48,261 nt of DNA from Seison nebaliae (Eukaryota), in the NCBI GenBank assembly GCA_023231475.1, contig JALJEE010001568.1:1-48261 (forward strand). The letters run 5' to 3'. Under the pieces are notes generated by a model. The model searched no databases. It was given only the letters and a program-made list of their open reading frames with translations, and was not told where the DNA came from. Of this stretch, positions 6,641 to 46,256 are shown one piece after another; the stretch's first letter is position 1, and each line of letters begins with the position of its first letter. The translations under genes and the position numbers were made by a program.

Positions 6641-7887
6641 ATGAAAATATTAGCGAATGTTATTCTTTGCATTGAATTGACGAACGATAAATTGATCTTA
6701 TTTCTATGAAGTTTAGTTCCGACATCCTTCAAAATTGCTTAAATATGAATGGGCATTTATCATCTTGTCCATCATCACTAGTGTGGGCGTGATTGGATTC
6801 AGCAGTTATCGTTTGGCAACCATTGATTTTGAGAACACTGATTTCCCATTTTGTATCATATTAATCGTTCATTCTCGTTAATCTTTTTCCCATTTCCATA
6901 TTTAAATTATTTCTGTTAGTCTTCTCCATTTATTATGCATTCAATTGTGTGTTCACTGAGAAACCGTATGAATTGGCCGTTCTCTTATTATCCAGTTTCG
7001 TTTTTGAGGTTTATGCTGCAGCCAACTACGGAATCACATTACATCGCTTATCGAAAAGTACAAAATTGTTGAAATTGGTTTCACTTTATGATTTTCTAAG
7101 AAAATCTTCAAATTTCAAATTCAGTTAAGATTAATTTACATGTCGGTATGTCTGCCGGGATTCGTCGCTTTGAGTGTCGCTCTCATGATTCGTTATACGA
7201 AAAATAGGGGTCACATTTTCAAGTTATTCGATATACATTTTATGAAAGAAACCATTTAATTTTTTTTCAGTTTACTTGGAGCGGATATGAGAATGCAAAA
7301 AATGGGACAAATTTTATTTTCTTTCAGTAGTTTAATGACTTTCTGTTTAGAAATGAATGTTTAATTTTTATTATTATTTATATATTAATATCATATTTTT
7401 TTTCCTTAAAGATTTGTATGATCGTTTTGATATTAAATTCTGATAAATCATATTCGTTGGAAGAACAAATTATTCTTGGTTTAGGTAGTGGAATAGTTCT
7501 CATCTGGTATATTATTGGAGTGATATTTCCTCGAATTGAAAGTCGGCCGTTGGCCTACTTCTTCTGGGCTCTATCATGGCCGGCACCGGCTTATGTAGTT
7601 TATCGAATGATAAAAGTTAAATATTCAAATTTCTTCACACGAAATCATTATTTTGTGAGATAGGCTGCCGATAATTTGACTTCGGACAAGAAGAATGTTA
7701 AATCGTTAGCAATCGTTGCAATAATGGGCGGCGTTCTAACGATATTGGTCGAATTTTCTGTGGCAATTCTATCGTCGATAGTTTACTCCAATTTCGGGAG
7801 AGGATTAGGACAGAAATGTTAATAATTTTCAAAATTTAAATTTTCATTATTATTTCTCTTTCAGTATACCAACAACCATCGAAATGA
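6641..7887 (+). CDS. Conserved uncharacterised multipass membrane protein (DUF7789/UPF0658-like), 8 exons
   Basis: Spliced product includes EWAFIILSII, DFPFCIILI, YYAFNCVFTEKPYEL, FNLLGAD, PAPAYVVY and the C-terminal VYSNFGRGL motif recalled for this family. The start codon is uncertain. Confidence 0.75.
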
Positions 7888-8188
7888 ATTGATGGAAGAA
7901 AAAAGAAGAGTTTTATAAAGAAACGAAAAAATTCTTATATTTAAATCAAATATTGAAGTTATAGAATGAAATGAATTCAACTTCAAGAAGAAAAAAAAAT
8001 GAATGAATTAACTGAAAATCATACTTGAATCATAAAAAAATAATTGTTTCTTTCTTCACTTTTGATTGTTCTGATTCTGTTGATGAACTCCCAAATAATT
8101 TTATGATATGAACATGAAATTTGATGATGTCTATTTGAGAATAAATTATATAATATTAAAAAATCATTTTCCTAATACAAGTCCCTTT

Positions 8189-10166
8189 TTATTTATCATC
8201 CTCCTCCTCTTCCGGGTAATGAGATCGAACACGACCTGACGATTTTGAATTTCTGATTTTCTCAATCATCATTCTCGCGTAGCGTATACGAGAAACTAAG
8301 ATGTGTGTCACACCATTATCCTTCATAGCGTTCATTGGATAAGTGAAAAATTTTCCATTTGAATCGATGTATGTCAATGCACCCAATAATGGACAAATGA
8401 CAATTTTAGAATGATCAGTGAAGAAATTCAACTAAAATAAAAATGATAGAATTAAAATTAAATTATAATGAAATTCAAATTATGATATGAATAATGAATA
8501 AAACTTGTAATGTTCCATTGGAAAAGTGGAGTATAATAGCGGATCGTGTACGGAACCAATGACGGAGATATGGCCAACGAGCCATTTCATTTCCACGACG
8601 TTCTTGTTCCGAACCAGTCTACAAAAATAAATTAAAAATTTAAATTGAAAATTTTCAATAACTTTAAGTAAATTGTCTTTCATATAATTTTTAAAATATT
8701 TCAATAATACAAATTTCTTATAAAGTGAATCGGGAAATGTTTCGGACGAATAAAATAATTCATGTCCATTTCGTTGAATATATTGAAGTGATTCGCCATC
8801 AGGTGTTAAAATTAATCGTGTGGAATCATTGAACAATACTCCCACCGAATCGTCACATAAAGCATAACCTAAACCATATTTATCGGAATAATCGACCCAT
8901 TTGGCCACCCATAAAAATGGTCGATATGCAGGATTTTCTATTTCTTCCATATCCTCCACTGGTTCTTTGCCTTGAAGATGATTATACAAATCACTGACCA
9001 TATCATGTAATTCGGTGGCATAGAAATCTTCCGATCCATTTTCTTCAATTTTCGGCCGTCCACCATCTTCTTCATTCTCTCGATTATTCTCTCTCACATC
9101 ATCATCAAATCGAGGAGCAGTTGTTAAGCAAGATTGGGGTAATGTGGTTGGTGTGTAACCATTAAAGAATTTGTGTCGTTTCAAACTAGACGCAACTGGT
9201 CGTAATTCGGGAGATAATGATAACATCATTGAAATCAAATTTTCTGCTTCTGACGAAATAGTTGTCGGTCGTTCATATACACAACGTTTAATACGATCAT
9301 ATGTATCTTTCAATGATGTCGTTTCAAACGGCGGTTTACCAATCAACAATACATACCTGAAAGAATATATGAAATATTAATAAACAAAAAAATGGAACAT
9401 TATACACCCGAGCGACCAGATATCGGCTTCGAATCCATGTCCAGATTTTGTGAGAACTTCCGGAGCGATATAATTCGGAGTTCCACATAACGTTCTATTT
9501 AAATGAGAAATTAAAATGAAAATAAATTGAAAAACTTCTTTTTTTTACTTCTCGATTGCATCAATGTGGCTAATCCGAAATCACCAATCTTCAAATTCAT
9601 TTCGTCGTTTATGAAAATATTTCCTAATTTCAAATCTCGATGAATAATTCTCTCGTTGTGCAGATATTGAATTCCACTAATCAATTGTAGGAGGAAATAT
9701 CTCGTTTCATATTCGGTGATCTTCCTCCGACGTTTATGCATTTCCATCAAACTCTTCAATGAAGGAAATTATAATGAAATGAAAAATGGGAAAAAGAACT
9801 CTCTTAGAACAGAGTTCAAGAATTAAATACAAATTTGCTCTGTCTTCGAAACACGAATAAAATTTGACAATATGATCATGATTGAGACATTTGTGAATTT
9901 CGATTTCTTGTAATATCTTGTCATGTTGTGTTTGCTTTTCCAGATGAGCTTTCGAGACGACCTTTCCCGCCACAATTTTCCCATCTGTCAAATTCTTGAA
10001 TTCGAAACATTTGGCAAAACCTCCCTGATGTATCGTATGAGAGATTATGAGTAAGAATGAAAAAAAAAGGAACTCGTCCGAGAAAATTCATCTTCTCATA
10101 TTGGAGACCTTCGATGCGATCTTCAATAACATCGGGCACGATATTTAAACTGTGACGTACGACCAT
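8189..10166 (-). CDS. PLK1: Polo-like kinase 1 / polo, 7 exons
   Basis: [42 protein letters not shown]; polo boxes [16 protein letters not shown] and [27 protein letters not shown]. Introns 10025-10073, 9754-9799, 9495-9535, 9357-9398, 8619-8662, 8432-8504. Confidence 0.96.
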
Positions 10167-43801: not shown

Positions 43802-45051
43802 TCACTTTCATTCGAATTCTCAAATTAAATTCGACTTTATACACGTCTTTTATCGGCAATTTTATCTGATTGACACGAATTTGTTCGTTCAGATAAAAAT
43901 CGATAAATCTTCTTTAAAGTTAAATTTTAATTCGTTTCTTTCTTCCTCTTGAAATGTTTCTGTTAAAGAATGAAAAGTGGATGATGATGAATGACAGGAA
44001 AGAGATCAACACCAGAAAAGAAATTACAGAAATTTAATGAAAAAGAAAATTTGAAAAGAAAATTTTTTTTAAAAAGGAACAAAATTCAGAAAATTAAAGT
44101 TGAAAGAGAAAAAAGAATTACCAAATCTACTTTTCCTCCCTAACATTTATTCTCCACGACGACGTATCGTACTATCTTGAGGAATTGTCATGAGAAAGAA
44201 AACTCGTCAATTCTCATTCTCCTCCGATAAAATAAATAAAGGAATTTGGATTTTATTTGAAAAAATTTATTTATTTTTTAAAAAAGTTCAATTAAAATCT
44301 TTTTTGTCATTCCACATTGTCAGATGGAAAATGGATCGATCCATCCATCATTCTCCCCTCACTCCTCCTCCAATCGACACCGATATGAAGTATTATCTTC
44401 CCTTTGTTTTTATTATTATGATCGCTAGTAAATCTCAAGTAAAATAAATAGGACAATTTATTGTGAGAGAAAGAAATGGGAAAGATGTTGTGAGGAAAAA
44501 TTTAAGAAAAATTTTATATTCAAATTTTAAGTTTAACGATTCGAATTTTTATTGACTTAAAATATTCTCCATCCTCTATCCACCATCTCCACGAGTTAGT
44601 GGACAGTGAATAATCGAATGTGAGTTCTGATAAGCATCATAACAATATTACATATATAGTATGTATATATCTATATATTATATAGGAATCATCGGAAATA
44701 AAGAGAAAATTGAGTTTGAATTGAAAAAAAAAATAGTAAAATTTTTTTCTTCTTTAAATGATATTACTGACAGTCAATTAAATTTCTTATCTCTCTCTTT
44801 CTCTCTCTTTCTGTTATTTAATTTTACATAATTTAATCTTCTTATTTATTCCATCTTTTTGAGGAAGAGAGAGAATTGTGTTTAGAAAGTGGAGATATAG
44901 ATAGAGACCCACCTATAGAAAGAGATAGTATACCTATATAAGAATTTTTTTAGAAATTTTATTAACATGCCACATAAATATACACAATCGAGATCTATTA
45001 TTTTTAATTCCATAAACGATTATTATTCTAGTTGTTGTTGTTGCTGTTAAT

Positions 45052-46256
45052 TTATCCTCCTTTCATTATTTGACGTTGTTTCATAGGTGATGATTCTGTC
45101 GTTCGTTCAATTTCTATCGATTTCCTCGATCTTCCTTTCTTCTTCTTATTCTTTCCATCATCATCCGTCGTCGTTGTCGTCGTTGTCATTTCCGTATCCT
45201 TCAAAACGATTTCTAATGAAATTGGTGAGAAGAGAAAGAAGAAACTTCTATATCATCACAATCTGATTCACTTAAATCCTCAACAAATCCTCGATATAAT
45301 TCCTCTTCGTCACTATCATCCTCATCGTCTTCGTGATCATCTTCGAAATAACTTTGACTTCTGAAGGATGGAAATAAACAATTTTTTTGGACAAAATTTT
45401 TTTGTAACATTTTCTCTTTATTAACATCTTCTGTTGCGTCATCATCAACAATTTCAACTTCTTTTAATGCGTTATCAAACGCCATTTGAGAGAAATTATA
45501 AATTTCTCCGTACTAAAATCGGAAGAATTTTGAGAAAATTTGATGGAAATATTTTGGAGAAACTGTTCCTTCTTTCAGACGTTGAATTAATTCACTTTCA
45601 ATCGATTTAGTTATATTGGCTGCTGCTAACGCTTTCACTTCTCGTCGTTCTTCTCGTCTCGTAATCTTTTTGTTAAGTGGAATCACTTTCCTAATAAACA
45701 GTAATTAAATATGTCAAAAAGATGAAATGAAAATTTTACTGTTTCTGATTTGCGAGTCGTCTCATTCGAATGAGATATTGATGGATTCTGGTTAAACGTT
45801 GTTTACATTTATTTCTCAATTTTCTTTTCATAGAATGAATAGAAAAGAAAAAGAAGAAAAATCTAACGAATCCCAATAGATCAAATTAACGTCGATCTGT
45901 TCGAGAGCTTTCTCGAAATTAGCTGGCAATTCTATTTTTTCCCATAATTTTGCAGGTAAGTGTGAACGTTCTACCACTTTCATGTATAAGTAACATTTTC
46001 CTTTTTCTTCTCGAATTGTCGCATATTGAGCATTGGCTAAAGGACATGAAGTTCGATTGCAGAGACCACTGACATTGAACTGATTTCTACAGAAGCTCAA
46101 CGGTCTTGATCTAATTTAATGAAAATAAAAATAAGTTCGAAATGTTTTAACTTCACTTTGTAACTGCAGAAATTATTGCCAATGACACTCCAAATGACCT
46201 AAACAGATTTTATTAAGGATTAAAAAATTTGGTTGACTAACATCATCATTCTGCAT
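45052..46256 (-). CDS. MAK16: MAK16 ribosome biogenesis factor, 8 exons
   Basis: [82 protein letters not shown], acidic tail. Confidence 0.95.

Follow-up and report, generated by a model that had tools for sequence, protein, structure and literature searches.

Near-universal GTT donor sites in a contig of the rotifer Seison nebaliae suggest altered 5′ splice site recognition

In U2-type introns, a canonical GUAAGU donor pairs with the ACUUAC 5′ end of U1 small nuclear RNA (snRNA) (10.1101/2022.06.08.495308), and departures from this donor consensus are known chiefly from protists with few introns and strict splice signals. Entamoeba, the closest described system, is intron-poor and uses a strict hexamer: 88–90% of its donors read GUUUGU and 97–98% GUUUGN, and these donors go with a U1 5′ end of ACAAAC, a precedent for a variant U1 (10.1101/2022.06.08.495308). 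The larvacean tunicate Fritillaria is an animal with splice signals rewritten on a genome scale (PMC13326754). Here, we describe the donor sites on a contig of Seison nebaliae (Rotifera, Seisonidea; JALJEE010001568.1), the whole 48,261 bp of which served as our window, and in which 40 of 41 mapped introns begin with GTT.

S. nebaliae, a seisonid rotifer that lives as an epizoan of Nebalia (small crustaceans), has a 44-Mb assembly of 32% GC and two lineages, and misses 36.5% of metazoan BUSCO genes (PMC8351084). Like Entamoeba, Seison combines a near-universal +3U with GT-AG introns in a host-associated, gene-reduced lineage (10.1101/2022.06.08.495308). Unlike Entamoeba, it is an intron-rich animal in which +3 is the only fixed position, A is preferred at +4, and both +5G and −1G are weak (8/41 each); its near-fixed +3U (40/41) comes without the strict GUUUG core, as GTTTG occurs in 0/41 donors. 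Whereas the terminal dinucleotides have changed in Fritillaria, with a conserved U1 5′ end (PMC13326754), Seison keeps GT-AG and has changed +3.

Donor sites in seven genes

The 41 introns lie in seven genes of this one contig and carry 40 GTT donors and a single GTA donor. All introns are GTT in KIF28 (13/13), PLK1 (6/6), a PLK paralogue (6/6), a DUF7789 multipass gene (7/7), RPL32 (1/1) and brat (1/1), and six of seven are in MAK16. Introns of KIF28, both PLK genes, MAK16 and the DUF7789 gene were obtained by mapping the database proteins of the contig onto the window (KIF28 exon 1 is 100% identical to SNEBB_001283 of S. nebaliae), while those of RPL32 and brat were set by exons that abut on homologues of solved structure in the Protein Data Bank (PDB). 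The junctions are thus deduced from protein homology and reading frame. Introns are 40–97 nt long (median 47 nt), with 39/41 falling between 40 and 58 nt. As in U2-type introns generally, GT…AG ends restore conserved reading frames in 41/41 cases, the 3′ region is rich in pyrimidines, the acceptor follows HAG (T22, C12 and A7 at −3), and the intron bodies (51% T, 30% A) have no fixed branch motif. The departure is at the donor: a GURAGU-like site fitting the canonical U1 ACUUAC has a purine at +3, found here in 1/41.

KIF28 (SNEBB_001283; 17595..21265, + strand) has its GTT donors at 18051, 18213, 18480, 18655, 18836, 19074, 19233, 20110, 20214, 20403, 20578, 20887 and 21071. On the − strand, PLK1 (SNEBB_001280; 8189..10166) has donors at 10073, 9799, 9535, 9398, 8662 and 8504, and the PLK paralogue (SNEBB_001281; 11760..13581) at 13497, 13219, 12853, 12629, 12447 and 12135. 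The DUF7789 gene (6641..7887, +) is interrupted at 6659–6716, 6877–6919, 7078–7124, 7223–7270, 7359–7411, 7616–7663 and 7818–7864. In RPL32 (34241..34697, +), the exons around the intron at 34487–34538 abut on PDB eL32 chains, residue 81 being aligned to residue 82 and exon 2 beginning at 84. The brat-like NHL protein (38146..43801, −) has one intron at 38896–38854; its exons correspond to Drosophila Brat residues 20–136 and 137–274, joined at 136|137. MAK16 (SNEBB_001291; 45052..46256, −) has GTT donors at 46241, 46151, 45867, 45563, 45408 and 45245, whereas its intron 4 (45691..45739, 49 nt) starts with the sole GTA (donor 45739; homology-fixed with a margin of 53), so a GTA donor is tolerated.

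Because gene models could carry a trained donor bias, we built a spliced aligner whose sole requirement is GT or GC plus AG, which has no preference at +3 and uses profiles of non-Seison homologues only (40 for KIF28, 40 for PLK1, 38 for MAK16 and 6 for DUF7789). Independently of the annotation, it recovered 33 mapped donors, 32 GTT and the GTA (KIF28 12/13, PLK paralogue 5/6, PLK1 6/6, MAK16 5/7, DUF7789 5/7); the acceptor alone departed from the annotation in 1/33, and one additional, unreliable call within the acidic MAK16 tail (margin 3) was discarded. With RPL32 and brat, homology thereby fixes 35 donors, 34 GTT and one GTA. Blocking the chosen donor cost 6–100 score units, and at least 13 in 25 of 28 matching donors tested. 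Moreover, several homology-fixed donors in brat, PLK1 and KIF28 have an in-frame GTA or GTG 9–18 nt upstream that is not used; in brat, for example, a GTA and a GTG at −12 and −15 of the GTT donor are passed over.

The original prediction, made by reading the sequence, had claimed near-universal GTT donors, and this is borne out by 40/41 mapped and 34/35 homology-fixed sites. The hexamers it quoted recur exactly (six in PLK1, gttaaa in RPL32, gttcct in brat), and so do its intron counts for PLK1 (6), KIF28 (13), MAK16 (7, the mapped introns being identical to our placement by hand), the multipass gene (7), RPL32 (1) and brat (1); the PLK paralogue has six introns, not five. It had also counted GTT introns in two further genes, a CLASP-like gene (24203..26867, +; Pfam CLASP_N) and a gene at 32449..32962 (+) with a Deltameth_res match (PF16020) on exon 3. 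The latter was labelled COX7B-like in the original prediction. Each of these five introns does have a GTT option of 43–56 nt, but they are fixed by frame only and were left out of the 41. GTT is the sole frame option for CLASP intron 1 (donor 26276), the only one of the five without an alternative; CLASP intron 2 could start at 26419 (GTT, 47 nt) or 26389 (GTA, 77 nt), and the three GTT options of the COX7B-like gene (donors 32501, 32669 and 32811) follow from frame alone.

Contigs from runs X1, X2 and X5 are of DNA type, with no intron-sized joint at the mapped introns, and carry no weight either way; run X6 yielded no contig for the window. The exon/intron patterns of this contig were not found among the 19,906 rows listed of a GMAP transcript map (PMC8351084 supplement 2). 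On many other contigs in those rows, transcripts skip genomic gaps of 40–60 nt, and therefore introns of such size are spliced in S. nebaliae. By hand count, about 32 of 39 distinct 40–90-nt gaps in part 1 of that supplement are recorded as deletions rather than introns, and many transcripts with several gaps are of indeterminate direction. Gaps coded as deletions would fit donors that, genome-wide, are scored poorly by a human-trained splice model.

Base composition, bdelloid introns and the shape of the donor

Could a T-rich genome produce GTT by itself? The original prediction held that AT-richness would favour GTA equally, which is not so: intron bodies have 51% T against 30% A, and T follows GT at 42.8% of GT sites in the window and, within intron bodies, at 17 of 25 (68%). 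Even so, the 40/41 GTT donors exceed both the T content of the bodies and the post-GT frequency, with p=4e-14 under the window null and p=3e-6 under the harshest, intron-body null. Composition alone is rejected as the cause at that 68% background.

As an outgroup control, we queried metagenome contigs with an Adineta kinesin and obtained 36 loci, of which 21 (L003–L021, L024 and L026; GC 24–33%) were kept by best match to Adineta and Rotaria proteins, i.e. bdelloids. The aligner used for Seison placed 220 introns in them; 181 passed a flank filter and 144 were unique. As these 144 come from related species and represent about 23 orthologous positions, they are not independent. At +3, these introns have A125, G12, T5 and C2. 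The equally AT-rich bdelloid contigs therefore have 87% GTA donors and GTT in 5/144, as opposed to 40/41 in Seison (Fisher p=8e-34, a value that overstates independence and on which the contrast does not rely). Bdelloid introns resemble those of Seison in being U2-type, GT-AG, short and AT-rich with a weak +5G (50/144); they differ in +3A (125/144) and in −1G, which is present in 64/144 against 8/41. Since bdelloid introns are about equally long (median 55 nt versus 47 nt), small intron size alone can be discarded as a cause of GTT. In the bdelloid-like kinesin introns, +5A is commonest (75/144).

The Seison donor is less bare than had been claimed. The original prediction saw no +5 G and variable positions +4 to +6. 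However, +5G occurs in 8/41 donors (six of them GTTAG), above the 6.1% G of intron bodies (p=0.003), and +4A in 23/41 (p=4e-4), followed by +4T in 10/41. Position +5 is A in 15/41, +6G is at background (2/41; 6%), and on the exon side −1 is G in 8/41 and −2 is A in 26/41. GTTAA (11) and GTTAG (6) are the commonest pentamers. Donors with neither −1G nor +5G make up 27/41 in Seison and 44/144 in bdelloids. As +5G itself differs little between the two (8/41 versus 50/144, p=0.085), a weak +5G is common to bdelloids and outside the Seison novelty; what is specific to Seison is the replacement of the +3 purine by U in the normal register, with weak flanking positions. In line with this, Seison donors match a GUUAGU-type target in register at a mean of 5.2 of 9 positions, compared to 4.3 for the canonical and 4.9 for an Entamoeba-type target, while bdelloid donors favour the canonical one (5.6 versus 4.8 for GUUAGU-type); the GUUAGU-type target was picked from these Seison donors, so the match is partly circular and speaks for consistency, not proof. 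U12-type introns are marked by an RTATCCTT donor and a fixed branch motif. Neither the donor tallies nor the intron listing resemble these, and U12-type introns were rejected.

Intron age and possible modes of donor recognition

How old are these introns? Exon edges can be read, indirectly, from mispredicted or alternative isoforms in databases. Among KIF28 variants of other animals, 9 of 36 deletion breakpoints lie no more than 2 residues from an intron site of Seison (7 different sites; p=4e-4), and the breaks in fish MAK16 variants coincide with, or come to within 2 residues of, positions 5, 21, 172 and 245 of the Seison protein (4/7 sites). PLK1 and its paralogue, only 38% identical, have 4/6 intron positions and phases in common; all eight donors at these positions are GTT, with differing downstream bases. 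Newly gained, introner-like introns were rejected on the strength of these matches to other animals and to the paralogue; in addition, intron bodies have no common sequence visible by eye. On balance, the introns are more likely ancestral and rewritten than members of a newly inserted family. No outgroup MAK16 or PLK1 gene was found in scans of viral and prokaryote contigs. The bdelloid-like kinesin intron positions match neither those of Seison nor the breakpoints in KIF28 variants of other animals.

Because +3U is near-fixed, lineage-specific relative to bdelloids and located at ancient positions, we infer altered donor recognition in Seison, and consider this well supported. Of the rewritten donor recognition originally proposed, this part stands, whereas the "no +5 G" half does not. 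As to its nature, we favour, with a probability of roughly 0.5, a lineage-wide change in 5′ splice site choice by the major spliceosome, most likely through a compensatory change of the U1 5′ end from ACUUAC to a predicted ACUAAC. Such a U1 would pair fully with a GUUA donor, +3U included. With −1G and +5G both missing from most donors, the U1 helix would hold little beyond +1 to +4, and could then hardly do without a Watson–Crick pair at +3; +3 could be near-fixed amid drifting neighbours because its pair would carry much of a weak helix. In introns of 40–60 nt, intron definition would select the site, a GUU spaced at a fixed distance from a U-rich tract and HAG.

Several points weigh against this proposal. 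The computed duplex of Seison donors with the variant U1 is weak (mean −2.6 kcal/mol, compared to −4.9 for bdelloid donors with canonical U1), and therefore proteins must contribute. Donors have changed without a change in U1 in GUAUGU yeasts, Giardia, Trichomonas, Thecamonas and Micromonas (10.1101/2022.06.08.495308), and the U1 5′ end of Fritillaria is strictly conserved despite its changed splice sites (PMC13326754). One homology-fixed GTA donor, that of MAK16 intron 4, works. None of 12 Seison KIF28 positions equals a bdelloid position, PLK1 variants gave no informative breakpoints, and the sample comprises seven genes of one contig.

Alternatively, U1 could be canonical and +3U be selected later, at the transfer to U6/U5 or by protein contacts (U1C, LUC7, PRP8, SNRNP27K), an explanation that we regard as unlikely, albeit far from negligible. 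U6 G44, which lies opposite +3, might form a wobble pair with U; in humans, it interacts weakly with +3 A or G, and worm snrp-27 mutants shift the +3 preference (PMC11732430). GUUUGU could also pair better with an unchanged U6 ACAGA (10.1101/2022.06.08.495308), and neither U1 nor U6 motifs changed along with the splice sites of Fritillaria (PMC13326754). However, a donor driven by U6 would be expected to have, like that of Entamoeba, a strong +5G and frequently +4U, and Seison offers +5G in 8/41 and mostly A at +4; a G-U wobble, moreover, is open to all eukaryotes and leaves a lineage-confined change unexplained. On the protein side, SNRNP40, SPF45 and LSm2 are Missing in Seison according to a BUSCO table, in keeping with this alternative, but PRP8 and SNRNP27K are Complete, as are SF3B1 and PRP31 (PMC12256650 supplement). 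Loss of SNRNP27K or PRP8 is thereby rejected as the cause; for U1C, LUC7 and METTL16, no row of that table turned up under the terms searched.

The many donors devoid of both −1G and +5G (27/41, against 44/144 in bdelloids), together with the tight clustering of intron lengths, might instead suggest that the U1 snRNP has been lost or bypassed, so that introns would be defined by length, U-rich tract and tri-snRNP, with GUU as the best-fitting start. Loss of around 36% of metazoan BUSCO genes in Seison (PMC8351084) and the U1-less splicing of Cyanidioschyzon (PMC10158995) lend this idea some plausibility. Yet known U1 loss goes along with a genome of very few introns and strong U6 pairing, while Seison is intron-rich with weak U6 pairing, and what remains of +4A and +5G is in keeping with a U1-type register; we hold a bypass to be improbable.

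More doubtful still is the absence of any special recognition, be it that +3 is unconstrained and owes its T to T-rich composition, mutation bias or one-contig luck, or that recent GTT-ended insertions or gene prediction produced the pattern. The evidence does come from one contig, and T is frequent in its introns (51%) and after their internal GT sites (17/25). But p=3e-6 holds even at the 68% background, T is not fixed at positions +4 to +8, and bdelloid contigs just as AT-rich have 87% GTA. Gene prediction is an implausible source as 35 donors were placed without annotation, and so are recent insertions, given many ancestral positions and bodies without visible common sequence. Overlapping DNA contigs from X2 and X5, which may be the source of the window, do not differ from it.

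A last candidate, the pairing of canonical U1 shifted by one base (GU-U-AAGU type), reportedly described by Roca and Krainer in 2009 for atypical human donors with a GUU start, was rejected as very improbable: +3U followed by A (+4A 23/41, +5A 15/41) does look like an inserted U, but the +6G that this register requires is at background (2/41) and G is enriched at +5 instead.

Returning to the compensatory U1 change, a broader version of it would hold that Seison swapped the +3 purine for U genome-wide, in old introns numbering tens of thousands, with the U1 5′ end rewritten or U1 absent, leaving a donor of nearly three letters, GUU. We advance this tentatively, at somewhat less than an even chance, as an extrapolation from the sequence at hand.

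Neighbouring features and significance

An Rfam scan of the window found no snRNA and a single tRNA gene (1191–1263, +; RF00005). Intron-dense genes adjoin very long intron-free frames, among them a nicotinic receptor subunit (14238–15893, −), a forkhead protein (28156–31671, −), an NTAN1-like amidohydrolase (35034–36776, +), brat (38897–43801, −) and the N-terminal part of the CLASP-like gene (24197–26317, +). The forkhead and brat frames contain long asparagine and glutamine runs. PLK1 and its diverged paralogue stand in tandem (8189–13581, −). Pieces of decayed DNA transposons lie at 46871–48122 (−), with a weak hAT dimerisation match in the frame 47619–48122. Two further genes on the − strand have a frame-compatible GTT intron, placed by frame alone: a membrane RING-finger gene (1968–3600; donor 3062, 45 nt) and an unnamed membrane-protein gene (33200–34066; donor 33616, 43 nt). 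Frame enumeration gave no option for intron 1 of the gene near 33.2–33.9 kb.

Run X5, mapped at 80%, contains low-depth (2–4.5x) contigs with about 82–90% exon identity over 17687–20883, which suggest a second diverged lineage, and similar contigs over 23932–24193. One of them spans 18095–18216, i.e. KIF28 exon 2 and the first four intron bases, and is a hint only.

Searches of openly accessible papers and preprint texts found no account of donor sites for either Seison or acanthocephalans. The Seison genome paper (PMC8351084) does not treat them ("splice site" occurs once, in the methods), nor do a 2025 gene-loss paper or the Seison passages of a lamin paper. Transformed-donor U2-type introns are already known from Entamoeba; within the literature searched, Seison is apparently the first case of a near-fixed +3U in an intron-rich animal.

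Changes in the machinery that match altered donors have been called elusive by Roy and Bowser (10.1101/2022.06.08.495308). Ancient introns on a donor that canonical U1 should read poorly represent a natural test of coevolution between snRNAs and splice sites, with a prediction of one base: an A opposite +3 in U1. Close outgroups exist in the bdelloids, which keep GTA, and the acanthocephalans, and a second S. nebaliae lineage is available for testing whether +3 is under selection. The case is relevant to whether donor specificity is set by U1 or by U6/U5, and to the way in which thousands of sites can switch together. For Seison itself, alignment and gene-finding tools that were trained on GTR donors are expected to underperform, which may inflate the gene loss reported for this animal.

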